Source: Gonapodya sp. JEL0774 (lineage: Eukaryota). From it: a stretch of DNA of 64,000 bases. Where the stretch lies: assembly GCA_027604505.1 (NCBI GenBank), contig JADIIX010000004.1, forward strand, positions 186,001 to 250,000, given 5' to 3'. This document shows positions 38,618 through 63,650 of this stretch, piece by piece. The first letter of the stretch is position 1; every line of letters begins with the position of its first letter. The translations under genes were made by a program, and so were the position numbers. The notes under the pieces are model-generated. The model ran no database searches. It saw only the letters and a program-made list of their open reading frames with translations, and was not told where the DNA came from.

Positions 38618-40650
38618 TCAAAAGGAAGTGTCCATTTTTTGCTCTTTCTCATCAACAGTTGCCGCCGACACGAGCCTGCCCTCCGCAATCGCCTGCTGGA
38701 ACATACCCTTTTTTGCGGCAGTGGTCTCTTTCGCGGCGCGAATGCTGGCGTCGTCGTCCAGGTCACGGGTTACTGCAGCCACCTCCGAATTGCCTGCGGC
38801 GATATTGCTGAAATGTTCCAACTTGGCGCCAGTTGTCTCTCTGGCAGCGAGAATGCTTTCATCCTCGTTAAGGTCGCGAGCAACCATACTGACATCCCCC
38901 TCGCCAATGGCAATCTTGTTGAAATGCTCCTTTTTCGCTCCTGTCGTCTCTCTCGCTGCCAGAATGCTCTCATCCTCGTTGAGGTCACGTATTATAACGG
39001 TAGGCTCAGTTTTGCCAGTGGCCAGATCGCTGAACAGGGCTTTCTTGGAGCCCGTAGTTTCCCGGGCTGCGCGAATGCTTTCGTCGTCGTTCAGGTCGCG
39101 AGCAACAACAACGGTCTCCCCCTTGCCGATGGCGATGTTACTGAAGTGCTCTTTGCGCGCACCAGTAGTTTCACGTGCGGCGATGATGCTCTCATCTTCG
39201 TTGAGGTCTCTTGTTGCCTGCAGAGTCTCTACCTTACCCGTCGCAAGGTCACTGAATAAAGCCTTCTTGGATCCAGTAGTCTCCCTTGCGGCGCGAATAC
39301 TCTCATCTTCGTCCAGGTCACGGGTCACAACCACAGAATCACCCTTGCCAGTGGAGATGTTGCTAAAAAGTTCTTTTTTTGCTCCAGTTGTCTCCCTGGC
39401 GGCGATGATGCTATCGTCATTGCTTAAATCGCGTGTGACAGCGGCAGACTCTCCTTTCCCTGTTGCAATGTTGGTAAAGTGTTCTTTCTTTGCTCCTGTG
39501 GTCTCCTTGGCCGCACGAATACTCTCATCCTCGTTGAGATTGCGCGACACCGTAACTGCCTCCACTTTCCCGGTCGCGATGTCAGTGAAAATCGCTTTCT
39601 TAGAGCCTGTCGTCTCCCTTGCTGCGCGGATTGAAGCGTCATCATCAAGAACTCGCGCAACTGGGGCAGTCTCAACTTTGCCTGTGGTGATGTCACTGAA
39701 AAGCTGCTTTTTTGCGCCTGTAGTTTCCTTTGCGGCTCGGATAGATGGATCTTCATCGCGAGCTCGGGAGACGGAAGTGGCCTCAACTTTACCGGAGCTG
39801 AACATTTCACGTTTAGACCCCGTTGTTTCGCGTGCTGCCAGTATGCTGGCATCTTGATCAAGGCGGCTAGACGGTTTTGAGTACGACGGAGATGAACGGC
39901 CAGATGCAAGACCGGCAAACATCTCCTTTTTGGAACCCGTGGACTGTTTCGCGGCAATGATGGAGGCGTCCTGGGCGAGTTTGCCATCGGTGCGAGGTTT
40001 TAGATGTGCAGAAGTAGTCGACGCCGCGGCAAGATTCTGGAAAAAAGCCTTCTTAGAAGCAGTGGTATTGAGGGCTTGAGTGGATTGAACGGCAGTGAAT
40101 GAGAAAATTGAGAATTCTTCCCTCATAAGGAAACAAACAGAAGGAACTCAAGAAGTGGTCACCAACCAGCTAGGATAGAATCATCCATTGGAAATCCGTC
40201 TACCAGTGGTCCAGAAGTGTCCTCGCTCCTCGAATCTGACCTCTCCATCGCACGAAACTTGTCCCGTTTCCCTGCTGTCGTCTGCACGGCGGCAATAATC
40301 GAACTATCCGCTGCGAGTTTCCCTGCCGGGGTGCTAGATCCGCTCGGAGTGGTGCGGCCAGTTCTGTTGCTCGATGCTGTTTTGCCGGTTGGAACGGTGG
40401 CCGTTGTGGCGACCGTGGGAGTCATCGGCTCCAGGATAGGCGCCGACTCAACAGAGACAGGATTGGGTTCAGCAGCTGGAGCAGGGGCATCGATGACGGC
40501 AGCGTTGATGGTCGGTTCTGTTGGCTCACCATCCGCAGAGGTAGTGCCCAGTGGTTCCTCGAGTTTCGTGTGAGGTTGGCCAGTCGCCACTGATTCCATT
40601 ACGACGGGATCATCCACTGGTCGAAGGATGTATTCGCTTCCGGTCGCCAT
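38618..40650 (-). CDS. Tandem-repeat protein with ~14 copies of a ~37-aa motif
   Basis: Two exons; repeated RDLxEDESIxAARETTG(S/A)KKxxFSxIATGK. Confidence 0.85.
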
Positions 40651-42348: not shown

Positions 42349-42585
42349 AACAACAGCAGGTCCCGGTCCTCTGTTGAGCAGCAAGGGCTTCCAGAAATGA
42401 AGTGTCCATGATATAGTGTCCATGAAAGTGTCCATGTTTTTGTCCATGAGAAACGAAAAACAGCGAAAGAGGGGGAACCTCTCTCGGCGCAATTCAGTGA
42501 CAGCTGGCACGTACCTGTGGAGTGTCCCGGATCCATGCGGCAGGGCATATCCGAGTGGGTTGTTGTAGCCGTGGTCAGCCAAATT
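42349..42585 (-). repeat. Dispersed repeat, copy 2
   Basis: Reverse-complement homology to 708-921; contains tandem tgtccatg units. Confidence 0.75.
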
Positions 42586-46149: not shown

Positions 46150-48995
46150 ACTATCAAATGTAATCTGTATGTACTCTATATATAGTGTATTCCACTGTGT
46201 ACTGTCTAACCATAATGCTCATACAAACAAGTTTCAGTTGTTGAGCAGCTTGTGGAACTTGTCACTGGGGTTGACAAAGCACATCCACACTCCTCCTGCT
46301 CTGCCGCATCCAAGTCCCAAGCGTTGTCCGTTACGCTAACAAATTTCTTGTCCGTTCTTGTCCTGGGGTGAGGGTTTTGTCTGGTCAGGGTTCTGTGGCA
46401 CTGAGCCTTGTGGCCCCATCTTTTTACTGCAGACACTCCACCTCATAAAGACGTTCTTCTCAAGACCAGTGGCACATGCCAGAATTTTAATTTGGAGGTT
46501 ATCGCAAAGGATTGCTTTTACTTGAGGGAATGTTAATGAGCTGGTGTGTGGGACATCTTCCAGCGTGAATGGATTGGACTCACTTTGCAGTATGAAAACT
46601 GGCAATCCTCGTTCACAGTACAGGAACAGGAGACAATGGATCATCACATCCTGTGCATTCTTCTGCTATTCATCAGTCTTGGCCGGAGCATCAACAAGTT
46701 TGTTCACCTCTGTAATGATGTTAGCAAAGGGATACATCTTGAGGAGTCTCCTGAACTCGGAGGATAGAGTGGGAAATTGGGGGTCTTTTGGGAAGGATCC
46801 CCAAAATCTGGTATCGCGGGTCCCCTTGTTCCTTCATCTTCTCCACCACTGCAAACAACATGGGAGCGTAATGAGTGAACCTGATATACTGAAAATTTGA
46901 ATTGTTCCCTGACTGATTCTTGTTGGGAGTGCAGTGGTGAGTTCCTGTTCTGTCACCAGGGAAACACACATAGATTACCACTAAGTAAGTAGATGAGTAG
47001 GGTTGTGGTGTTAGGGATCAGTAGGGACGCAGAGGCGTAGTGGCGTAGGCGCCACAGGGTTAGAGATTCTTTAGGTTTCATAACAAGCACTCTGTCTCAG
47101 GTAGGATGGAGCCTTGGTGGTGTATTTGACATTACATCTACATTTCTGTCTCAGCTATCCTATAGTTTGAGTTGTGACTCCAAGGCCGGGGCACATGTTC
47201 TCCCTGTGTGCAGTGCAGTAGAAGTGGAGACGTAGGCCCATGTCACTCATCCTGGCACTCCACAGATGTATAGCTTACTCAAATGATTCAAACTCATCAG
47301 TTGAAAGTGTGCCAGATTGACGATGTTTCGGACTGTTGTCATCACAAAGGCAGCATACCAGGCTGAGGCAGGGTCAGAGGACACGTTGTTGGTGGTGGGG
47401 CTGGGTTTGTGGCATGTCCCTGTGAGTTTGCTGCCTGACAAACAGTGTGGGTTGGGTTTAAGGTATGTCCCTGCATGTTTGCTGCCTGACAAGTCTTTAC
47501 CATGTTCGAGCAAGCTCTGCCATTGCGTCCACTCCTCACTACTGGCGGCAATTCCTTTTGGGCATGGGAAGTGGAGTGGAACAACGGGTTTCCCACCTTG
47601 GAATGCAAAGGTCCATACAGCAGCATTCAGCTGTATTTGCTGTAGCCGCTCTGCCAGATGGGGGAGGCCCTTCGCTTCTGTGGGCACGAGAGATTTTGAA
47701 GTCGCTGAAAAAGTGGTGCGAAAGGAACACGAGGTGTGTGGTGTGTTTTTGCGATGGACGTCTGAATGTTATTCGCTGATTTTACTCACCGTTGACTGTT
47801 TGCTTGTGCAAACCGCCGCTCTGGGCCCCAACAAAAACTTTGTACCAGTCCAAAGGGCATTGGAGCATCGGGACAGGAGTCGGCAAATGAAACAGGTCTC
47901 CCGCGAGATCACCAGAGAAGTATGGACACAGTGAGAGACCTTGGGTGGACAGTACAAATGTGGGTTGGAGCTGCAAGACGGTCAGTGGGATTTCACTCAA
48001 GGTGAGTGTGTTGTCTGTGGTGTACTCAGTGACCAAGCACGCAAATGGTACGGTACGCTGCAGCTGGCCCAAACACATCCTGAATGATGGACATGGGGAT
48101 CAGGGTTAACATGCCAGAGCAAAGGTTCTTTACGCAGTGGTCGACAACCATCTGGAGGTATTCAACGGCGTTTTCCAAATCAAGTAAGTTGTGGCCCCTG
48201 ATCTCCGCCCTGATTTGTCTGACCATCTCCATGGCCTTTTGTACTCTCCCCATTTACTTGTCACTATATTGGCCCATTTTTCTGACGTTCCTGGCCATGG
48301 CTTCTCACTGTCCTCTGAGTTGAGGACACTCTCTTCTCGGTACGAGCGTCGCCCTCCTTGAGGCTTTTGGTGAGCCAGGGCAAGAGAGTAGACTGTGTTG
48401 ATGACATGGATGTAAGGTAAGTGCAATTCTGGTTGGGTGAGCAGAGGGATTGAAGAGAGAACTACGTGCGAAGGAATTGGGTGTCTTGAGACTGGTGGCT
48501 GAAATGGAGTAAAGTTAGAATGTATGAAGAAATCGAAGTGTAATACATTTGAGAATGAAAGAGGTCGTTGATTGGACGAGAGATCTGTCTGCGTGGGGTG
48601 TGGTCACCCTGCCATCCTCCCCACATACCAGTGTGAACGAGAAACGGTTGAAGCCGTTCACATCCACATTTTATAAATGTGAGGACACAACGGAAACAAG
48701 AGTTGAGATCAGAAGCACTGACACTATGGATCTCCGAAATTTGCTGGCGAAAAACAGCCTCTGTCGTTCAAATCTTCGGGTTTTGGTCAGACGTGGGGAG
48801 TGGGCAAGTATTCAGGAGAAGATGGCAATGCAAGGGTGGCGAAAGAGAAGAGTCCGATGAAATCAAGTTTTATCGTTGTTTGCGCGGGGTTTTGAGTGGT
48901 TTCCCTGTGGTCAATGAGATAAATGCAAATCTGGAGTGAGCAGGTTGGAGATGTGGTGGAGGCTCCAACCCAAACGAACAGCCGTGGTTGCGTCA
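46150..48995 (-). mobile_element. Degenerate copy A of the unclassified element (internal deletion and a solo LTR insertion)
   Basis: Colinear homology with 49848-51157 and 53211-54510; frameshifts, stops and CpG decay. Confidence 0.85.
46951..47195. mobile_element. Solo LTR (245 bp)
   Basis: TG...CA termini; perfect 5-bp TSD TGTTC (46946-50 and 47196-200); absent from copy B; related to the LTR at 56048. Confidence 0.88.
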
Positions 48996-49280
48996 ACAAC
49001 CAACCATATTTGGGCAGCCATTCATTTGTACTTGTGCCAATGGGTATGTCAATTGCACAAGAGCACATGGGAAAACTGTTGCTATGCGCTTTGTAATTGA
49101 AGTTCCACACAAATGCGCACTACCTATCACACAAGCATTTGATCCCTTCTGACACCAACAATCACGTTGTGGACACACAGCACGTACTCTCAATAAATAA
49201 ATAAATAAAATCCAGTGGTTATTGGGTCCAATTATGATTTAACGCTCTGAATCTATGCTCTATCTAATAGGAACCGCTTC

Positions 49281-49517
49281 GGTGGTGTCCATACACCGCA
49301 GTACCACGCACTTTCCTCTTGAGAATAACCCGGCCCCAAGGATCAATAACTCAAGCAACACCTCTCATAGCTGGTGGCTCTTTTCCGAGGGTAAGCGTGC
49401 ATGGACAGCGAGGGTTCCGTAGCCCAGAAAGACCTGGGCATGGGGTCGGCAAGTGCATTTACACACCTTCACGGAGGCCTGTTGACTCCACAGTAACCCC
49501 CCGCTACACAGACCACC
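49281..49517 (-). ncRNA. Candidate structured RNA of unknown class (upstream of copy A)
   Basis: Nested helices GGTGG/CCACC, AGCGGGGG/CCCTCGCT, GCCCAG/CTGGGC, CCATGCAC/GTGCGTGG, CTTGAG/CTCAAG; G-U pairs favour the minus strand. Confidence 0.5.
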
Positions 49518-49828
49518 AATTCATTATATTTGACGTTTTCAATTCGAGTCGGAGATCGGAGAACCTCGCAGGGGGCAGGAAAGTTGGTGCGAGAGGGAGG
49601 ACGATGGGCATTTGCAGCGGCACCCACACAAGGCTGAGCCTAACCATCGTTGATCCTCTTTTCAGTCCTCCAGATTTCTCATGATTCATTACTTTCGCCG
49701 TCATGTATTATAATGAGGATATTTGGTGCGCAACTTGTGATCGGCCTGACAAATCAAGAGAGCTGTGCGCCAGGCTTTCAACCACTAAGCCAATATATAA
49801 CATAAACAACTTTTCCAGAGTACTTCGG

Positions 49829-49844
49829 CCCTCATTGGAACAGT
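49829..49844 (+). pseudogene. 5' fragment (16 nt) of tRNA-Arg(TCT)
   Basis: CCCTCATTGGAACAGT is identical to 55467-55482 and has a similar leader (ccagagta). Confidence 0.8.
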
Positions 49845-49916
49845 CAGCTATTCAAATGTAATCTGTACGTACTCTATATGTGATCTGATCCACTCTGTAC
49901 TGTCAACCCACAATGC

Positions 49917-52900
49917 TCATACAAACGGGTTTCGGTTGTTGAGCAGCTTGTGGAACTTGTCACAGGGGTTGACAAAGCACATCCACAACTCCTCCCGCTC
50001 TGCCGCATCCAAGTGCCAAGCGTTGTCTGTCACAGTAATGAATTTCATGTCTGTTCTTGTGCCGGGGTGTGGGTTTGGTCCGGTGAGCGGTCCCCGGCAC
50101 TGGGGCTTTGCCGCCCCACCTTTCCACTTGACACACCCACGCCGCGGACACTCCACCTTCGCAAAAACCTTCTTCTCAAGACCAGCGGCACTTGCCAGAG
50201 TCTCGATTTGGAGGTCGTCTCGCAGGATGGCGTTCGCCCGATGGAATGTCAACGAGTGGGCGTGTGGGACCTCGTCCAGTGTGAACGGATTGGACCGACG
50301 ACCTTGCAGAGTCACAAGTGGGGACCCTCGTTCCCGGTACAAGAACAGGAAACGATGGATCATCGCATGTTGGGCGTACTTTCGCCATTCATCCGTCTCC
50401 GCCGGAGCGTCCGCGATTTCGTTCACTTCCGTCACAATGTCAGCGACCGGATACAGCTCGACCAGCCTTTTGAACTCGGCAAACAGGGCGGCAAGTTGAG
50501 GACTTCCATCGGGGAAAACTTGAGGGCATCGCAGGACACCCAAGTTCCTGTATCGCGGGTCCCGTTGTTCCTTCATCTACTCCACCACCGCAAATGCCAT
50601 TGGAGCATCATGAGCGAATCGGATGAAATTGAAGCCGGAGACGTTTGCTGATTGGCCAATGTCAGAAGTGCATTGGTGAGTGCCTGTTTCCCCTTTGTGC
50701 TGTGCTGGGGAGTTGGAGACATAGCCCTGCGTCACACATCCTGGGACACCACAAATGTATACCCGTCTCAAGTGATTTAAACTCGTCACTTGAAAATACG
50801 CTGGGTCAACGATGTCTCGCACCGTTGTCATCAGGAACGCCTCATACCGGGCTGAGGTGGGGTCGGAGGACATGCCGTTGGTGGTTGTGTTGCGAGCTTG
50901 AGTTGGGTTCACGGCATGTCCCCGCGAGTTTGCCGCCTGACGGAAGTCTTTACCTTCTCCTAGCGAGCTCGCCCATTGCGTCCACTCCTCACTACCGGCT
51001 ACAATCCCTTTCGGGCATGGGAAGTGGAGTGGAACAACGGGTTTGCCAACTCGGAATGCGAAGGTACGTACAGCAGCAATGAATTGTTGGATTTGTTGTA
51101 ACCGCTCTGCCGATTGGGGGAGGCCCTCGGCTTTCTTGGGCAGGAGGGACGTTGAAGAGCGCCTGTCGTCGTCGGACGAGGGGGAAGAGTCTACAATTTC
51201 GATTGCAGTACTTGTATCTAAAAGTAGAAAAGAAAAAATTGAATAAAAATATATTGGTCAGTTAGAATATCATAGCGAGATTTGAGACGAGGAAGTGGTG
51301 GGTGGGGGATTCGGCTTCGAGAGGGCGGACCACTCTGACACAAAATCCTTACCTTCACCTCCTTTCAAACCACCACTCGCCCGCAACGAACGAACAAGCC
51401 GCACCCTCCCCGTTTCGTACTCCCTACGAAGCTCCCTTAGCTTCGATTCGATTTGCTTGGCGATCGCCGATTCCCGGAACCGGTCCAACAGAGCCTCGAG
51501 CTCCACCCTGACAGCGTCGCCTCCGTCGTCGAGGCGCCACGGGTAGTTCTATTATGGACATGATGCAGAAGAGGGATGGATGTATCTGTGAGTTGTCACG
51601 GTTCGGGAGCAGGACGAGGTTCAGGGCCACCTCACCAGAACACTCACCTCATCCCGTTGCGAGAGCTGCTGGCGCACGAACAGGTCCAAGCACTTGCTGT
51701 GCAGTAGGCCGATTGCGAAGAGCTGATAGTACAGGGGTGAGGGCGATGGATCGTGCTTGAAGTGGCCTGGATGGATGTTGGGACTGACCAACGCCCAGTC
51801 CCTGCTGCGAGGCCCGACCTTGCAGACCGCTGTCGTCCCAACGAGTTGGTACAGCTGTCTGACGGCTCGTAGCTTCTCGATTTTCAGGTTGCTTCCGTTT
51901 GACGTCTCACCAGCCGCCTTGTCCTCCAGTTCCCCATCCGCCAGCAGACCCTTCTCAAACACCGCAACGACGCCTTCCGAATCAGCAGCGACGTGAATCG
52001 GCATCAATATACCCAACTGACGGCGGAGGAAAAGGAGGGCGCGGAAGAACCAGCGGCGGTTGGTTGTCGGCAAGACATCCATAACGGTCCCAAGACGCGG
52101 CACAGCAGGAAATTAGGCGGTACACTGCTTGTTGCAGTGCAAGGATTGTGGAAAATGGTGAGTGAGAGCTCTCTTGCTATCGCTGGCCCACTTCCTGAGA
52201 GTTTGTGGAAGAACGGTATTCCATTTCTAACTGCCTCAAGTGTCACATCCTTGTGGATGTTCACTGTTGACACGGCACCACACTGTGTCCGAATCGGTTG
52301 AGACAGTTGGGCCAACGGTATGGCAATCTCCTCGTTGTAGTGAGGTAAGTGTGCCAAGTCCGCCGGTTCTCGCAACCCAAAGGAGGCAGTGAATCCTTGC
52401 ACCCGGTCGTAATACAGGTCGCCGAGAGCGTCACTCAGCCGTGTGTCGTATGCAGTGGCTGCCGCACCTTGGGTTCGTTGAGAATGAACGTGGAGGTGAG
52501 TTTGCTTGTCATGTGATCGAATGTGAGTTTGCGCGCACTGTGGAATTCTCACCATCCATTGCTGTCTCTCCCAATTCCTCCAATGCAGGCTTTATGGCCA
52601 TCTCCCTAGCATTGCCGATCAAGTCTGCGACGGAGTTGTCGAGACGGAGTCGCCGAGAGTACCCGCCAAACGCCGAGTTGAGCGCCAAGGGTCCGATCAG
52701 CAGGACAAGTGCGTCCTCGATGTCACCGACGAACTGCATCGCGAACTCACACCGGTCATCCAAGAATTCGGGGATCTCCACTTGGATCAGGGCGTGCGAG
52801 GTGAGTTGCTGGAGGAGATGGTCATCGGATCCAGACACGAGTGAGTCACTGTCGCTGTCGCTGTCGCTGTCCACATCCACATCGATTGGATCAGATGATC

Positions 52901-53938
52901 CATTTCGAGTGGATGTATCGGCAATACGCAGAAAGTTGAGGATGCGGACTCGCGATTTTGTTCGAGTGAAATCGTTCATCATCCGCTCCTGTCCATCGCA
53001 GACTCGCGAAACTCCGGCGTATCTGAACGAGAACGCGCGATCTGAATCGCTCTCTGCGAATTCTCGGACCTGGCGGTGGCAGTGGTCGAGGACGGCGGTG
53101 GCCCATGGAGCGTCGGCGGGATAGCTTTCGAGGTATGTTTCGAGTATTGTTGTCGCCCTTTGCAGATCAACTCTGTATTCTCGAACGTAGAATTCAAAAA
53201 AGCTGAGTTTTTGAAGTCGCGGAAATAGTGACGAGAAAGGAAGACGAGGTGAGTGGTGTGTTTTGGCGAGGACGTCTGAATGTTGTTCACTGATTCTACC
53301 CACCGTTGACCGTTTGCTCGAACGAACCGCTGCTCTGGGGCCCCAGCAAACACTTTGTACCAGTCCGAAGGGCGGTGGAGCATCGGCACAGGAGTCGGCA
53401 AATGAAACAGGTCCTCCGCGAGATCGCCGGAGAAGTACGGACGCAGTGAAAGACCGTGGGTGGACAGTACAAATGTGGGTTGGAGCTGCAAGACGGTCAG
53501 TGGGATCTCACCCAAGGTGAGTGCTTTGTCCGTGGTGTACTCGGTGACCAAGCACGCCAGAAGGTGTGGAGCTGCTGGCCCCAACACATCCTGAATGATG
53601 GACGCCGGGATCGGGGTTGACATGCCAGAGCGAAGGTTCTGCACACGGTGGTCGACAACCGTCTGGAGGTACTCTGCGGCGTTTTCCAAATCGAGTGAGT
53701 TGTACCCGGCGATATCCGTCCTGATTTGTCTGACCATCTCCGTGTCCTTTTGTATTTTCCCCATGTACTCGTCACTAAATTGGCCCTTTTTTTTGACATT
53801 CGCGGCGATCGCTTCTCTGGTCTTTGCCTTGTATGTCGCTGTCCTCTGAGTTGACGACACTCTCTTCTCGGCACGAGCGTCACGCTCCTCGAGGTTTTTG
53901 GTGAGCCAGGGCAAGAGTGTGGACTGAGTTGATGCCAT
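49917..53938 (-). CDS. Element copy B gene: ~1,100-1,200 aa protein with GIY-YIG-like and UDG-like motifs and Cys clusters; one frameshift and one premature stop
   Basis: Four GT-AG introns join ORFs 52979-54067, 52509-53303, 52004-52555/51621-52103, 51270-51506 and 49917-51220 in frame; frameshift near 52110; TAG at 50577-79 is AAG in copy A. Confidence 0.7.
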
Positions 53939-54800
53939 GGATAAAAGGTGAGTGAAATTCTGGTTGGGGGTGAGCAGGAGGGATCGAAGAGAGCACAATG
54001 TACGAAGAAATTTGGGTGTCTTGAGACCGGCGGTTGAAATGGAGTAAAGTTGGAATTTTTGTACCAAACAAATTTGAATACATTTTTTTATGAAAACCGG
54101 TCGGCGTTCGGCCCAGAGAACCGGCCGGGGGGGGGTGGGCCCCCCCCCCCCCCCCCCCCGCCCCCCACGAGAAACGGTTGAAGCCGTTCACACGTACATT
54201 TTGTGAACGTGAGGACGGAACGGAGACAAGATTTGAGATCAGAAGCTCTGGCTCTTTGGATCTGTGGAATTTGCTGGCGAAAAACGACGTCTGTCGTTCG
54301 AATCTTTGGGTTTTGGTCAGATGTCGGGAGTGGACGAGGATTCGGGAGAAGATGGCAATGCAAAGACGGCGGAAGACAAGAGTCTGATGAAATCGTGTAT
54401 GTCAAGTCGTTTGCGCCGGGTTTCGAGTGGTTTCGCGGTGTCGATGAGATGAATGGAAATCTGAGAGTGAGCAGGGTGGAGATGTGGTGGAGGCACGAAC
54501 GGCTGTGGTCGGTATACCTCCAAACAATTCGAATTCCAATCAACAAAAGTATTCTGTCTTGCCCTTGCAGTAGTCACCAAAGTGCTTTGTGTCCGTGCCA
54601 GGTCCACAAAATACTCCTATTTGATTGCCGAGTGTGCGCTCGTGGGGGGGGGGGGTCGTACCAGGCAGTACCCGGAGCCTTTTGTGGGCAATTTAATAGT
54701 AATGCTGATAATTCAAGGTTTATTGGCGTGGATGCTACAAAGTCTACGGCAAAGAAATAAGAAATGCATACCACCGCACCACCCACCACCCGTTAGATGA

Positions 54801-55042
54801 CACGGGACATGAATCCATTCCAAGGCTTGCTATCCAACCATTGCAAACCAGCCAATAGCCTTCGGACGACGAGAAAATCCGCCTCCTACCGCTGCTGGTG
54901 GCCAGCAATAGAAGGCAGACTGAGATGCAGCGAGCTTCCCAAACTCCGCCTCACTGGGAAATTGACGTCGGAACACGCAGCAAGGGTGCTGGGGATTGAC
55001 ACGTTGAACAGGCGTGGTGTTGGAGAGCCTCGCGTCCCGGGA
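54801..55042 (-). ncRNA. Candidate structured RNA of unknown class (upstream of copy B)
   Basis: CGGGAC/GTCCCG closing helix, GCGAG/CTCGC, CAGCA/TGCTG, TGCTGG/CCAGCA, AAGGCT/AGCCTT; topology resembles 49281-49517. Confidence 0.45.
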
Positions 55043-55466
55043 GCTGTGGGTTCTGGGCGGTACTGGACAACATCAGCGTAAAGGAGTCCCAAGAAGGCTT
55101 CACACCGGCGTCCAAAGCACCAAAGATACCAGGGGATGTGGCAGTGAGCTTTGGGGTTCAGGGCAAAAGAGGGGGGAGACAAAATGGCAACGGACGGGGG
55201 GCAGCATACAAACCGACCTGGGGAGAGTTGGTTTGCTCTGCCTACTGGCGGAGACCGCGCTAACCCACCGCCAATGAGCGGGGATGGAACCGCGATGCCC
55301 GATGCGCGGCGCCTATCCGACCGTCGGACTTTGGAGCGATGGGTTCTCCAATGTACCTTGAGTGCAAGGTGGCACAGCCACAGGACAGCCACAGCCGGCA
55401 GACACTTGAATCGCCCAACAAAATAACCTTTATATTCTGAAAACTGATTTACCAGAGTAGTTCTTA

Positions 55467-55539
55467 CCCTCATTGGAACAGTGGACAGTTCATCTGCCTT
55501 CTAAGCAGAGAGTCGTGGGTTCGACCCCCACATGAGGTA
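55467..55539 (+). tRNA. tRNA-Arg(TCT)
   Basis: Cloverleaf: CCTCAT/ATGAGG acceptor (C1-T72 mismatch), GAAC/GTTC D-stem, TCTGC/GCAGA stem with loop CT-TCT-AA, GTGGG-TTCGACC-CCCAC; T-rich tract downstream. Confidence 0.88.
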
Positions 55540-55688
55540 TAATAATGTTTTGTTTTCTCTTTGAGTTTTTGAGAACTGACTGTTACAATCACAGAATGTT
55601 TTGTTTTTCTTTTTGAGTTGTTGAGCTGTCTGGAGGTCATTGTCTTGTGGTACGCACTGTGGCCTTGTCCATTGCCCGTTTGTTTCTG

Positions 55689-55765
55689 CCCCCCATTTGG
55701 AAACAAGTGGACAGTTCATCTGCCTTCTAAGCAGAGAGTCGTGGGTTCGACCCCCACATGAGATA
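55689..55765 (+). pseudogene. tRNA-Arg(TCT)-derived copy 2 with an altered 5' end
   Basis: Anticodon and T arms identical to copy 1; acceptor and D 5' strand disrupted. Confidence 0.8.
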
Positions 55766-55870
55766 CAACAAGTTTTGCTTTCTTTTTGAGTTTTCAAGCT
55801 GTCTGGAGGTCATTGGGGTTGTGGAACGCATTTTGGCCTTGTCCATTGCCTGTTTGTTTCCTGTCCCCCA

Positions 55871-55946
55871 CCCTCAATTTGGAAAAAGTGGACAGTTCAT
55901 CTGCCTTCTAAGCAGAGAGTCGTGGGTTCGACCCCCACATGAGGTA
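55871..55946 (+). pseudogene. tRNA-Arg(TCT)-derived copy 3
   Basis: 3' two-thirds identical to copy 1; 5' end reads ccctcaatttggaaaaagtgg. Confidence 0.8.
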
Positions 55947-56476
55947 CAAAAAGTTTTGTTTTGTTGTTGAGTTTTTGAGAAGGGACTGTTACAATCACAG
56001 AATGTTTTGTTTTTCTTTTTGAGTTGTTGAGCTGTTTGGAGGTCATCTGTCACCCCTAGTGACATTTGAGTACCTGCTGCTAGGATAGTGGTTGGGTAGG
56101 GGGATTAGTCACGTGAAAGGGGTCGTGTGGCACAGCGCACACAGGGTCATTCAGACACAGAGGGTTTAGTTTCTCTTAGGTTTTATAGAGTCCACTCTGT
56201 CACAGGTGGGATGGAGGCATGTCAGTATTTGCTTTGCTCTTGTTCATTACATTTCCGTCACAGTCTTCTGCTCTACGCTCGACTCTGGTAGTGACCCTTA
56301 GGGCGTGTACGGCCAGCACATTATTGTGCACGGATTTGGATTATGTGGGCGTGTTCGACACTTTCAAGTAACAAATTACTAGTTGTTGCTCACTGAAAAA
56401 AATAACTACCTTCAGGGCTTGTTTTTCAACCATCACAAACTCATACTTTCGGCATACACACCAATTCCTCAACGCA

Positions 56477-57617
56477 ATGGGACCGAAACAACGCGAAACT
56501 GGCAAGGCTAAGACAGAGGATACAGAGGACATGGACGAGAGGGAAGGGAAGGTCCAGTGGAAGACCAAGGACAGAGAGAGGGTGCTGCTAGAGACCCTCC
56601 TCTCGTTTAAAGCACACAGGAACGGCGGCAAGTTCTCCAAGCAGTGGACACCGATTGTTGCTGCCTTCAACCAACGGGCGAATGTCAAGTACAGCAAGAC
56701 AGCAATTCAGAACAAGCACGGGGAGCTGAAACGAATGCACACAGCATTCCTCAAGCTCAGGGACCGTTCTGGAGCCGGCGTGGACCCAACAAACCCGTGC
56801 AAGGTGACGATGAGCGATGATTCATGGAAGGATTGGGAGAAGGTGAGTGCTAGGTTAGGATGGAGGTCCCGAGGAACTCTATCACCCCTTCGTTTTTAAT
56901 GAACAGCACAATGAAGCCCTCGTCAAGTACAAATGGCGTGACAATGGTTTCCCATTGTTTGTGCTGGCTGACCAGATCTGGGGCACCACTGCTGCCACTG
57001 GACAATACGCGACGAACGCAACAACACACCAGGCGCGAGATACCAGCAGAGATCCGGCGGACATGACAGACAGCGGCGACTCATCAGAGGATGAGAAGAG
57101 TGGAGCGGAGCAGGATGAAAGTGATGGACGTAGCCTCAGGGACAGTCGGGAGGGAGGTGAGTGCTACTTTCATATTGCTCCAATCGCATACCAGACTTCA
57201 CTACTGCTTTTTACAGGTCAGGGCAGTGCTCCTAGCACACCTGTGCTTTCTGTCTCTCTTGACGGGTCGCGGAGGGGCTCCGAGGGTTCTGTCATACGCT
57301 CGAAAGCCCCAACCACACGCCAGAAGCGCAAGCGGGAAAGCTCTATCACCCCTAACCCAGCGGACACAATTGCGGCCGGCATCAACAACTTTGCAGACGT
57401 ATTCAAGACGGCTATGCAGAGTGGCGTGGCGGAGGGGAATGGCAGCTGGGTGGTAAAGGCGCTCAGCGTTGCTCTCACGGACGGGTTCAATGCTGAGGAG
57501 CGTCGCCACCTCGCAAGGCTGTTCAGAGAAGACAAGGTGAATGCAGAGGTCTTCTATGGTTTGGGGGATGTGGGGACACGACGGGGTTGGCTTGAGGACC
57601 AGGATCTGCCCATGTAG
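56477..57617 (+). CDS. Harbinger Myb/SANT-like DNA-binding protein
   Basis: VQWKTKDRERVLLETL...FSKQWTPIVAAFN...IQNKHGELKR...GAGVDP; spliced. Confidence 0.85.
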
Positions 57618-57705
57618 CTATGTCCAACGCGAGATGCAATAATAAATTTCATGTATTACAACAGATGTAGTGTAAATAAGAAAAAAACTGTTACGCTATA
57701 CGCCA

Positions 57706-59032
57706 TTAAGTGTCTATAACAGGTGGTGGGCGATAATCCCGTTCCGCCCGGATTCGCACATAGTCGTCCCACATCCTCTGAGCCGTCTGCTCCCTCCACA
57801 CCACTGCTGGCTCCATACGGCGACGTTGTGACTGCACCTCCCCGTTGACTGTTGGGCCCACTGGGTATGGGTTAGCAGCAACAAAGTCCGTGGCAATTGC
57901 GTCCCCAGCACCATGGGTCCGCCGATGCACAAAATTGTGGATGACACAACATGCCACCACCATCTCCACTTGCAGAGTGAAATCCATATACCGCCCACCT
58001 TTCTCTAGTGCCTGTGTCCTGTTCTTAGCAATGCCGATCACCCGCTCAACAATATTGCGGAGGGAGGAGTGCTGCAGGTTGTACAGCTCTAGCAGTGTCT
58101 GAGGTCTATTAATAAAGAGGACAATGTAGATGTAGGAGTGCATGAGTCAGTGAAATTTTCAGCACTCACCTCTTTCCCCACTCTGCCCACTCTTTGAGGT
58201 GATACCGAACCCGGAACTTGTATGGGGTCCTCCATTGCATATTGTGCTCGTATCCTGCATCCACAAGGTACCAGCGTCCATCGGGCACATGGAGTCCACC
58301 ACGCTGAAGAGCGTCGGCAAGAACTGTACCGTCATGTGCTGAGCCCTCGTACCCCGCATAAACATAAACAAATTGTCCATCCAGATCCACAATCACGAGT
58401 ACATTCTGTGAGAGAAAGCCCTTACGATTCCGAAAGGGAACCTGAGCATCCCCTACAGGAATGCGTGCCTTGATGTGTACCATCAGCAGCACCAAGGCAC
58501 CCATCAAAATAGGGGGAGAAACAAGGGTTCCCTGTGATCCCTTCTGACTGCACAGTGCTTGCCGTGGGTAGTACAATATAGTCCGGGGCAAGAGAAGCGA
58601 CAGCTGCTTGAGCAGCTGGGACATAAGCGGTTACAGTGGACAGGGAGTGCCTGAACGCGAGTCCGTATAGCCCGCATAGACACTCCTTGTCCCAGATACA
58701 TCATCAGCATCGCCATCTGCTGTTCTGCGCTGACCTCTGCTGTGTCAATCAGTTCCCGTCGCAAGCGAATCCTGGCATAGGTCGAGGAAGACCGTTCGCG
58801 GCATCCTCAGATTGTCCAGGACCATCTCATCATGGGCACACAGAGTTTCCTGAGTCCAGGCCTTGCCCTGAAGCGCACTATTGGTCATTGGGCGCGGGAC
58901 TTGGTGAGGATGGGGAATCAGAAAAGAGGCAGCAGCGGCAATGACCATGACGAAGGCCGCACCAGTCGCCGCGACCATCCGAGTCCTGCTTTCCACCAGA
59001 TCGTTTGATTCCACGTCTGTATTTTCCGCCAT
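57706..59032 (-). pseudogene. Harbinger DDE transposase (HARBI1-like), frameshifted
   Basis: LRMPRTVF, FRNRKGFLSQNVL, AGYEGSAHDG, YLVDAGY, HSSLRNIVERVIG, CCVIHNF. Confidence 0.9.
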
Positions 59033-59275
59033 GATGCAAATCTGCCATGTGGGAGATGCGGGGTTTCTTGAAGGATTATGGGCGTGTTCGGCACTTGCTG
59101 GACCAAAAACTAGTAATTTACGGGGAACTCATACATGCACCCCCAATAACGAATACTTCACAAATAATTACTTTTTAAAATTACAGGTGCCGTACACGCC
59201 CTCAGACAGGTCACATCATTGGGGTAGTGGAACGCACTTTGGACTTGTCCATTGCCTGTTTGTTTCTGCCCGCCA

Positions 59276-59352
59276 CCCTCAATTTGGGAACAAGTGGACA
59301 GTTCATCTGCCTTCTAAGCAGAGAGTCGTGGGTTCGAACTCCACATGAGGTA
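59276..59352 (+). pseudogene. tRNA-Arg(TCT)-derived copy 4
   Basis: Same unit as copies 2-3; T-arm reads ttcgaactccac. Confidence 0.8.
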
Positions 59353-59454
59353 CAACAAGTTTTGTTTTGTTTTGAGTTTTTGAGCTGTCTGGAGGTCGTT
59401 GTCGTGTGAAACTCACTTTGGACTTGTCCATTACCTGTTTGTTTCTGCCCCCCA

Positions 59455-59526
59455 CCCTCAATTTGGGAACAAGTGGACAGTTCATCTGCCTTCTAAGCAG
59501 AGAGTCGTGGGTTCGACCCCCACATG
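59455..59526 (+). pseudogene. tRNA-Arg(TCT)-derived copy 5, 3' truncated
   Basis: Ends at cccccacatg and abuts a second Harbinger remnant. Confidence 0.8.
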
Positions 59527-59599
59527 GACCTCTCTGAGTCAATCTTGGATGCAACTCAATCAGGATTTGCACGAAGTTGATGCGGGAGGCGGACTGCGA

Positions 59600-60711
59600 T
59601 TGCAGCCTTGGCTCTGGTCACACAAACATTGTCGTCTTGGCAGGGGAGGGCTGAAGTGGGACCGTCATTTGACTTCAGGCAATATTTGGATGCAGATTCC
59701 TGGTTCTACTTCAGGTAAGACATTGTTGTGCAGCGCTTTTACAGTTGTTCTTGTGTCGGGCATGCGGTTGCTTTTTCAGATTTCATAAGAACGATATACC
59801 GTGACTTCAACGCGCTTTGTGCATTCTGACTCCTTTTCAATGGCCAATCAAGTTTGAGTGGATGGTACATTTGCACTTTGCCTCCTGTTGCGCCGGTTTG
59901 CGTACCCAAATCGCCCGGAAGAGCTCTCAGCAATGTTTGGTCGCACACATGACTAACTTTCGAGGGTTCTGGACTTCACAATCAATCTGATTGTTGAGGA
60001 GTTCAGGGATACCTTGAAGTGAGATCATGTGCGACTGACTGCTGAGCTGCTGACGCAGTTTGGGAGAGCAATCCAAGGCAGGAGGGGCTCCAACTGACAG
60101 CATTTTCAGATTTGTGGACTGTACAGTACGGCGAATTTCCTGTCCAGAGGACCACCAGAAGCTGTACTACAATGGGAATAAGAGGATGCATGGCGACAAG
60201 TACCAGTCCATCATCACACCTGATGGCATCGTTCACCTGACAGGTCCATGGGTGGGAAGGTATCATGACATCACCATTTGGAGATGGAGTGGAATGGAGG
60301 AGCTGCTGCAAGAGCATGGTGAGTGAATAAAGAGCATAATTAGCACTTTGAGAGATTACAGCTTTTGATATGGGCTATGATTTCAGGACGAGACGTCAAT
60401 GGAAATAGCATGTTTGTTTACGGAGATCCTGCGTATCTTGCTGTGGAAGGGGTTATGACATCACAGAAAGGACATCTTACAGAGGTTGAGCAGGAGTTGA
60501 AGACAATTATGAGTGGAGTGGGGTTTTGCAAAAATTCAACAGATTGGGCATTCATGGATTTTGCGAGGAATTTGAAAACAGGGTTGCAGCCGGTTGGTGC
60601 ATACTACATTGTGTACTTCTTACAAATTGCCATACCTGCATATACGGTCATCCAGTTGCCAGCAAATTCATGTTGACACTGCCCAGCTCAGAAGAATACT
60701 TGCACAATTAG
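59600..60711 (+). pseudogene. Second Harbinger-type DDE transposase, degenerate
   Basis: FVDCTVRRISCP, YYNGNKRMHGDKYQSIITPDG, GPWVGRYHD, VYGDPAY, LTNCHTC; stops and frameshifts. Confidence 0.88.
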
Positions 60712-61910: not shown

Positions 61911-63319
61911 AAAGATAAAAATGCACCTGCATTTCAGACATACATCATTGAGACATGAAATTGCTTCATTGCGGTGCAGTTCAGGGTGAATACTCACTCG
62001 GAATTCTATTGGTCATCCCCCGATTCTTCCCTTCCGTGCATCCCATGGACCTGGGCAGCTTCCACACAGCTCATCACAACTCTCCAATGCACAATCAGGG
62101 CGTGAATAGGAATCGCTGTCAAAAAAACAGACACTGGGGAAATGAACGAGGTGACATGACAGCACCAACGACGATGAAGACACATACCAGCCACGTAGGG
62201 GACAGAAGCATGTTTGCTGTGTAATTAATGATGAGACAAAAGGTGAAGGAGAGTGAGAAAGAGAGGACACAAGACATGAAACATGGCAAGTGGAGATGGG
62301 GGGCAGACCATATTGGTATTGTCCGCATTTGCATTTTGCAACTGTTTGGGCTGCTAGTTTAGGGCGGTTGAACGTAGCTCAGCCAAATTAATGGCTTCTA
62401 CATGCTCAAATGCCAGGATTGGTGATTGTGGGAAATGGTAAAGGGCTGTGGAGTGTTTAGAATATGTCATTCCATTGTGTCAGTACTCAGTTAAGGTGGC
62501 TGGCTGGGCAAAGCATTGTAATCCAATCACTAGCTTCTAAGTGTAAACGTGAAGCTGAAATTCAGCAATTCGTAAAAAGGTTTGTAGCTGTCAATTCGGG
62601 GCTTCTCCTGCATATTGACATTTAATTGTCACATGCCTGTGGGGAAAGAGAACATTGTCCCTGGTCCCAGACCATTCAAAACTTGGAACCACACTGACAC
62701 TCCCTGAAACGTTTGTCCCACCGCTGTATTGCTACAACAGTCCATCTTCCAAAAATGGCGCAAATTGCACCAAGAAATCCAAGAAAGATGTAATGGTGGA
62801 AGCAGGTGCGTAGCAGTGACTATATTCGATTCAACCACTGTCTAACCTATTGTGACCCTTCTCCTGATTGTAGCCATAAGAGACCCAGTAGCCTTTGAGG
62901 CCATCATTGCGATGGCTAGACAGACAAATGTTGATGGAAGTCAGATACACTCCTTTGTCTCTCAGTTGTTGCTGTGTTCTGCTGGACTCAAAGACAGGGA
63001 ACAAGAGGTGCTAAATGTTTTATCAGCTGGTGAGAATGTGACCCACCAGGTTGATTCTGTTCTCTTTGGACGCCAAGCTTTGTGACACAGGATGTGAAGC
63101 CTTACAAACTTCGGGTCACACTGAAACCGCAACAACCTTACGGGAGCAATTCACCTCAATTATTGCAGTTCAAACAAGTCTGCAGCAGTCTGAATCAAGG
63201 GTCTCCAAACTGGTCGGTATGATCTGTGCACTTGAACAACAAGTCGCCAAATGTAACCAACAACTCCAAACAGCCCAATGTGAGCACCAAGAGAGAATTA
63301 GGACCATGCAATCCCAACA

Positions 63320-63650
63320 CATAACTGAAAGAGATGATCTTGCTGAGCGAGTTGGGCGAATGGAACAGGAGATGACAGATTCAGCACAGCTGATGAAGGT
63401 GAAGGATGCCTGTTCTCACAAGTGACAACTGAAAGGGATGATATGGCTAAACAAATAGAGTGCATTAAACAGGATATGGCACATTAGGCACAGCTCTTGA
63501 CTGCAAAGGATGCCACATTCTCACAACTGATGACTGAAAGGCACAATATGGCTAAACAAATCAAGGGCATGGAGCAGAAGATGACAGATTCAGCACAGCT
63601 GATGAAGGTGAAGGAGGCAGCGTTGTCACATGTGACAACTGAAAGGTAAA
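63320..63650 (+). repeat. Degenerate tandem repeats within a coiled-coil ORF remnant
   Basis: gatgacagattcagcacagctgatgaaggtgaagga occurs twice; actgaaag..atatggctaaacaaat recurs. Confidence 0.6.

Follow-up and report, generated by a model that had tools for sequence, protein, structure and literature searches.

A spliced fungal gene family with predicted GIY-YIG-like and UDG-like domains, one copy of which abuts a tRNA-Arg fragment in Gonapodya sp. JEL0774

The closest working analogue of the locus described here is SegB of phage T4, a free-standing homing endonuclease of the GIY-YIG type with a tRNA motif as its cleavage site. Its gene lies in a tRNA cluster, and SegB spreads itself together with flanking DNA by repair, without a transposase (PMC2330249). 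Fusion of GIY-YIG to a DNA glycosylase is also known, from the COG1833 proteins of Methanococcales, in which the partner is Endonuclease III and the proposed outcome is a pair of cuts flanking a lesion (PMC1564403). We analyzed a 64,000-nucleotide window of Gonapodya sp. JEL0774 (contig JADIIX010000004.1, positions 186,001 to 250,000 of the forward strand; all coordinates below are those of this window) and found a spliced gene on its minus strand (53938-49917) that belongs to a multi-copy family and ends beside a 16-nucleotide (nt) tRNA-Arg stub. The gene family is real and looks undescribed. From its sequence, the protein likely joins a GIY-YIG domain, a predicted base-binding domain of the uracil-DNA glycosylase (UDG) fold and zinc-binding modules. 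Our preferred reading, held tentatively and at slightly less than an even chance, is that the gene is a broken copy of a multi-copy selfish nuclease gene that spreads by break-and-copy repair at tRNA-Arg nucleotide 16.

The locus resembles SegB in placing a GIY-YIG-like gene among tRNA sequences. SegB is small, intronless and phage-borne, recognizes a motif in the T arm and homes from allele to allele among related phages, whereas the gene studied here is nuclear, spliced and about 1200 codons long, carries a predicted UDG-like domain and abuts nucleotide 16 (D arm/A box) of the tRNA; its activity would be that of a putative nuclease. The COG1833 proteins share the fusion of GIY-YIG to a DNA glycosylase. 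Unlike the present family, they are archaeal and contain Endonuclease III rather than a UDG fold, and the available part of their description gives no multi-copy occurrence or tRNA link. A full-text literature search, judged by titles and abstract openings and with supplements outside its scope, returned no described fungal GIY-YIG/UDG fusion, and the accessible part of PMC12730594 mentions neither GIY nor Dada.

The gene is real, with five exons that run from an ATG at 53938 to a stop at 49919-49917, four GT-AG introns and about 1200 codons; the product has 1200 residues when an X is placed at each of two lesions. An earlier note on this DNA had joined open reading frame (ORF) pieces in frame across four GT-AG introns, and the NCBI model HDU93_006679 (P0001, Gonapodya sp. 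JEL0774) uses all four. This model is the best protein match to exon 2 and maps onto the locus residue for residue, so the window is fungal nuclear DNA. Exon 1 (53304-53938) encodes an N-terminal region to which no function was assigned and which is colinear with three paralogues, P0002, P0003 and P0005. It is followed by intron 1 (53203-53303, 101 nt, GTGGGT...CAG; the donor in the upstream paralogue is GTGAGT), by exon 2 (52553-53202), which carries the GIY-YIG-like domain, and by intron 2 (52468-52552, 85 nt, GTGAGA...AAG). Exon 3 (51648-52467) holds the UDG-like region, and intron 3 (51549-51647, 99 nt, GTGAGT...TAG), exon 4 (51353-51548, also in the NCBI model) and intron 4 (51218-51352, 135 nt, GTAAGG...CTAAC...TAG) lead to exon 5 (49917-51217), with an AEGLP/FPCP module and two Cys clusters. 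Every intron contains a CTCAC or CTAAC branch-like word, and the frame is kept after splicing. The motifs quoted in the earlier note are all present and in the order it gave: FYVRE at residue 216, FRYAG at 271, QERMM at 283, DIEDA at 372, LNSAFGG at 386, HKDVT at 500, MDVLP at 558, HPGH at 661, AEGLP at 797, CGVPGC at 923 and CPRRGC at 1124.

Two lesions interrupt the frame, in exons 3 and 5. The premature TAG that had been reported at 50577 occupies 50579-50577. Since the upstream paralogue carries a lysine codon at the same place, recoding of this stop was rejected and the TAG is a lesion. The frameshift had been put near 52110; alignment to the paralogues moves it about 26 nt, to 52084-52083, within a short T run. 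Besides the four shared introns, P0001 has two more, which bypass the lesions, and these were rejected as true introns because they would delete conserved motifs. Both lesions may be recent, or they may be sequencing errors.

Searching 1.84 billion representatives by HMMER with the last exon returned seven proteins with E<=0.001: P0001 to P0005 from JEL0774, a 337-residue piece from G. prolifera and a 191-residue protein (P0007). The alignment comprised four members, namely the window model, P0002, P0003 and P0005; the fragments P0006 and P0007 were omitted, as was P0004, which resembles P0002 (87%) and whose model is a fusion with eIF2D. The window model is 36.4, 36.8 and 27.2% identical to P0002, P0003 and P0005, respectively, and because it is colinear with all three and shares 121 invariant columns with them, the gene is more than chance. 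With five annotated JEL0774 proteins and a sixth, dead copy just upstream of the gene, the family is multi-copy and not the single-copy, syntenic host gene that would have undone the proposal in the earlier note. P0002 and P0004, which have consecutive accessions and share the same 55,892-nt longest contig, are probably a second tandem pair. The model of P0004 (KAJ3337006.1), named eIF2D at NCBI, joins a family copy and the eIF2D gene into a chimera. The otherwise unrelated-looking P0007, compared with window positions 51131-50919, contains the AEGLP/FPCP...W module twice, and this module may be a mobile repeat domain.

Beyond these proteins the family has few visible relatives. Word-index homologue searches matched only P0001, P0002 and P0004. 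Searches with tblastn for relatives of P0002 in plasmids and phages gave no match, the family profile hit none of 301 bacterial genomes in a scan run without a positive control, and scans of metagenome and viral contigs yielded no relative. In the ESM Atlas, whole P0001 had no usable match; residues 190-760 of P0002 retrieved a GIY-YIG cluster (54% PF01541) at 0.85 and, with higher scores of 0.90, 0.89 and 0.86, unnamed clusters from Ascomycota, all of them leads only.

Within exon 2, the residues Y217 (53189), Y273-A-G275 (53021-53013), R285, E374 (52718) and N387 (52679) are invariant in all four aligned members and follow the GIY-YIG order Y, YxG, R, E, N. This signature arose in 2 of 20,000 label shuffles, with a pattern that was set after the data had been seen and with a widened G..R spacer. 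The E..N spacer of 12 falls within the range of 9-16 in bacterial references (measured in 23 of 32). On these motifs the GIY-YIG domain is probably present. A Penelope-like retroelement or its remnant, of the Naiad/Chlamys type with an N-terminal GIY-YIG, could also account for such a domain in a spliced gene, as these elements can keep introns; their known features include retained introns, insertion in tandem and targeting of rDNA (PMC8557442). We consider this highly improbable, since no member has a reverse transcriptase match in Pfam and [YF]xDD is absent from three of four members, the sole case lying inside the GIY-YIG-like region.

The UDG-like region of exon 3 contains K501-D502-x-T504, P513-F514, G520/G522, L580-x2-L583-x-P585 and the HPG at 661. 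Its motif KD[VI]T-x8-PF-x5-G runs parallel to GEAPG-x8-PF-x2-G of family-4 UDGs (PF03167). The whole UDG4 signature, with this first motif, the LxxQLxxLxP helix-strand and HP in order, arose in 1 of 20,000 label shuffles, again for a post hoc pattern. In the hhalign register, FLRRQLxxLxP and HP align with family-4 UDG, and motif order and spacing, the FLxxQLxxLxP helix-strand and an HP near the end resemble those of that family. The region differs from family 4 in its changed first motif, in insertions of about 30-60 residues, in an HP histidine that is not invariant and in lacking the family-4 Fe-S (iron-sulfur) cysteines, which in that family serve an Fe-S role; the similarity is also not statistically significant. 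As judged from these motifs, a UDG fold is somewhat favored, and with KD[VI]T in place of GE/GQD the domain may be no ordinary uracil glycosylase.

Exon 5 carries C923-x4-C928...H948-x-C950 (cluster 1, 50753-50670, minus strand) and C1124-x4-C1129...C1141 (cluster 2, 50150-50097, minus strand). H948, C950 and C1124 are invariant in all four members, C950 and C1124 being the only invariant cysteines. The HxC of cluster 1 occurs in 4/4 members and its Cx4C in 2/4, and there is no Pfam match. The Cx4C...HxC arrangement resembles the short-spaced Cys pair and HxC of WRKY-GCM1 fingers (PMC1702500).

Several results count against these domain assignments. Pfam gave no GIY-YIG or UDG match in 27 fragments or six proteins, NCBIfam, PHROGs and PADLOC returned nothing relevant for five proteins, and both motif patterns were fixed post hoc. 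The G..R spacer is 9 residues vs 5-7 in all 32 bacterial references, and the first tyrosine, Y217, lies 56 residues ahead of YAG; core insertions are known in GIY-YIG restriction enzymes (PMC1564403). With a query profile of only four sequences, hhalign against the 32 bacterial GIY-YIG domains gave E 0.12-0.23, matched by 3/30 and 12/30 shuffles. Against 19 family-4 UDGs it aligned 69 columns with a probability of 2.3% and E 0.021, reached by 2/30 shuffles, and unrelated windows gave similar scores. The HP histidine is present in two of the three members that cover the site and is replaced by D in P0002. Neither fold was confirmed by AlphaFold, which reached a predicted local distance difference test score (pLDDT) of 36.0 for P0001 as a single sequence and 34.8 for the UDG-like region with a five-row alignment, so the structural comparison proposed in the earlier note gave no usable fold. 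Its GIY-YIG-like call thus stands at the level of the five invariant residue types and its UDG-like call at that of motifs in register with family 4, while neither has a supporting profile or fold match. Sequence searches of the PDB gave best E values of 0.17 and 1.3, both to unrelated proteins.

The gene sits between two direct repeats that contain the start of a tRNA. An intact tRNA-Arg(TCT) with a C1:U72 acceptor-stem mismatch lies at 55467-55539 on the plus strand (ARAGORN; Rfam, 56.7 bits). The left repeat (49811-49844, plus strand) comprises about 18 nt of the upstream flank of the tRNA and its nucleotides 1-16 (49829-49844), and the right repeat (55448-55482, plus strand) comprises the upstream flank and nucleotides 1-16 of the intact tRNA. 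Between them, a 5.6-kb segment (49845-55447) consists of the gene, 5' non-coding sequence to about 54500 and a spacer (54501-55447). The tRNA stub is cut off after nucleotide 16 (junction 16/17), 72 nt beyond the stop of the gene, and is identical at 16/16 positions to the tRNA-Arg start 5.6 kb away. Including this exact 16-mer, the repeats agree at 30 of 35 aligned positions, with 27/46 identical farther upstream. The 16-mer occurs only at 49829 and 55467, and once known repeat blocks and simple repeats are set aside it is the sole 16-mer present more than once. No terminal inverted repeats were found at the segment ends.

The dead paralogue just upstream (46154-48969, minus strand) is 73-82% identical to the gene and has six stops and ten frameshifting gaps. 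An internal deletion removed exactly the GIY-YIG-like and UDG-like regions (the equivalent of about 51158-53204), with the ends joined at a CTTCAA microhomology; we count the loss of exactly the two putative catalytic domains in favor of the selfish reading. The ratio of nonsynonymous to synonymous divergence (dN/dS) between the neighboring copies is 0.46 over 201 codons and 0.31 over 382 codons, and at differing residues the copy at 53938-49917 agrees with a paralogue 65 times, the dead copy 21 times. The former was therefore under purifying selection until recently. Synonymous divergence (dS) between the two copies ranges from 0.26 to 0.61, with 0.26 in exon 1 and 0.61 in the last exon (47780-48420 against 46215-47700), a gap that may reflect gene conversion or a mosaic.

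The two copies cease to be homologous no more than about 7 nt from the stub. Because the stub is identical at 16/16 positions despite a dS of 0.26-0.61, the junction appears to be a recent one at an older shared end, which suggests that it is younger than the split of the two copies; in a rough calculation, a neutral stub as old as the copies would remain perfect in about 1-12% of cases. The 5' non-coding regions of the two copies match at 421 of 523 positions, whereas no relationship is seen between the spacers at 48970-49780 and 54501-55417 (score -230, shuffles -241+/-23). A single, simple tandem duplication of the whole unit was rejected on this ground.

Under the preferred reading, the GIY-YIG domain would nick or cut DNA, and the UDG-like domain, by binding or flipping a base, would direct or permit the cut. 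Repair of a break close to the tRNA A box would draw on a donor with the order tRNA nucleotides 1-16, gene, spacer and tRNA, in which the tRNA body and the 16-nt stub would serve as homology. Repair would copy the gene and spacer, leave the stub on the left and rebuild the whole tRNA on the right, all without a transposase, inverted ends or a short target duplication. Copies would afterwards decay, as the upstream neighbor has.

The segment could also be explained by errors. On this account the gene is real and the tRNA stub, the repeat and the lesions arose in assembly or sequencing, for which the short T run at the frameshift speaks, together with four tRNA-Arg-like copies farther along, whose extra bases all extend existing runs. 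These four copies nevertheless have one common pattern, and the flanks upstream of the two 16-mers differ, as their 27/46 identity shows, so the repeat is no collapsed copy. We regard this explanation as improbable.

If the segment were a tRNA-targeting DDE cut-and-paste transposon, of the Dada type or another, its transposase would have to be diverged beyond recognition. Dada elements share with the locus a junction in the A-box region, the lack of terminal inverted repeats, introns and a gene opposite the tRNA or other RNA gene (PMC3706591, PMC8869645). The 5.6 kb also fall inside the Dada range of 4.7-11 kb (PMC3706591), and an internally deleted derivative lies alongside. The family nevertheless shows no DDE and no C/DxxH common to its four members (P0005 lacks any), no N-terminal CCCC finger or cysteine cluster, no C-terminal CCHC finger, only the two invariant cysteines and no transposase match in Pfam, and its repeat, which matches exactly over 16 nt and loosely over about 34 nt, carries the tRNA start and flank and is no duplication of 6-7 bp. 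A Dada-type origin is hence decidedly improbable. A 2026 review notes the lack of any report of a homing-type endonuclease in Dada and regards the combination as possible in theory (PMC13565253). The same text describes KolobokP, whose endonuclease, according to a proposal, promotes unequal crossover of the terminal direct repeats and generates multimers, a likeness to the repeats seen here; KolobokP, however, is a beta-beta-alpha-metal nuclease within a Kolobok transposon, while in our segment the repeats are tRNA starts and no transposase was seen. A tyrosine recombinase, considered by eye only, was rejected, and there was no Pfam match. As to other cargo, the two long spacer ORFs scanned contained nothing that Pfam recognizes. 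Several plus-strand open frames of 46-94 residues lie in the spacer at 54797-55426 and are possibly a decayed second gene.

The main rival is a host nuclease family in which the UDG-fold domain senses a damaged or modified base and the DNA is cut beside it, in repair or in defense against viral or foreign DNA, with ordinary duplication and decay and with the tRNA junction as an accident of a fragile tRNA cluster. The deep divergence of the paralogues (27-37% identity) and the purifying selection fit such birth-and-death evolution, the ESM Atlas leads suggest a wider fungal family, and the GIY-YIG and Endonuclease III fusion of Methanococcales (PMC1564403) offers a precedent. The region is crowded with unrelated insertions, among them a Harbinger transposon, and a duplicate trivially has the same ends as its source. 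On the other side stand the position of the break inside the tRNA A-box region, the perfect stub beside diverged copies, the unrelated spacers and G. prolifera, which yielded only the 337-residue piece. We hold this account to be a substantial possibility, if short of probable.

Our preferred reading, spread by repair at the tRNA, faces difficulties of its own. Targeting of tRNA genes rests on one junction, seen at this locus only, and no tRNA piece lies at the matching end of the dead copy. The similarity of the upstream flanks is weak by itself (22 of 2000 shuffles), two full units should have related spacers and these copies do not, and paralogue identities of 27-37% indicate no recent burst. 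The homing-like mobility proposed in the earlier note therefore gains from the multi-copy family and the junction at nucleotides 16/17, and loses from the single junction and from a dead copy free of tRNA sequence.

In its bolder form, this proposal sees the gene as a nuclear, spliced, free-standing fungal homing endonuclease of GIY-YIG/UDG-fold type. Its targets would be tRNA genes, cut near the A box, and repair of each break would carry the gene from one tRNA paralogue to another and restore the tRNA every time. This form seems unlikely, and tRNA homing may best be viewed as an attractive lead from a single case. If true, the bolder form would represent a class of eukaryotic mobile DNA that uses neither transposase nor integrase nor reverse transcriptase, and the four neighboring tRNA copies, with their extra bases at nucleotides 6-13, would be cleavage-resistant scars. 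Should the tRNA junction recur, SegB-like homing would reach eukaryotic nuclear tRNA genes and could provide a tool for tRNA-directed insertion. In either case, a predicted nuclease invisible to Pfam would be a base-directed DNA cutter or a selfish gene.

The tRNA-Arg-like copies lie beyond the intact tRNA on the plus strand. Two, at 55690-55945, have three extra bases each, all within about tRNA nucleotides 6-13, and two more, at 59279-59526 past a Harbinger insertion, have four extra bases at about the same nucleotides. They belong to a tandem unit of about 180 bp at 55600-56050 and 59216-59550, in which every extra base extends an existing run. The array is split by a PIF/Harbinger transposon (56301-59202) with the terminal inverted repeat AGGGCGTGTACGGC, which carries a Myb/SANT ORF on the plus strand (PF12776, E 2.6e-8) and DDE_Tnp_4 pieces on the minus strand (PF13359). 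At 59900-60710 on the plus strand, decayed ORF pieces look by eye like a second Harbinger-type transposase, with no Pfam match in the one frame scanned. Related copies of a non-coding repeat of about 210-250 bp were found at 46949-47154, where one interrupts the dead paralogue, and at 56046-56263, just before the Harbinger element.

Elsewhere in the window, a 509-residue ORF on the minus strand (38618-40147) is made of a 37-residue (111-bp) repeat with IRAARETTG. A dispersed repeat lies in inverted orientation at 746-918 and 42353-42528, with 69% identity across some 180 bp, and a 105-bp coiled-coil-like coding repeat is present in three copies at 63309-63646.

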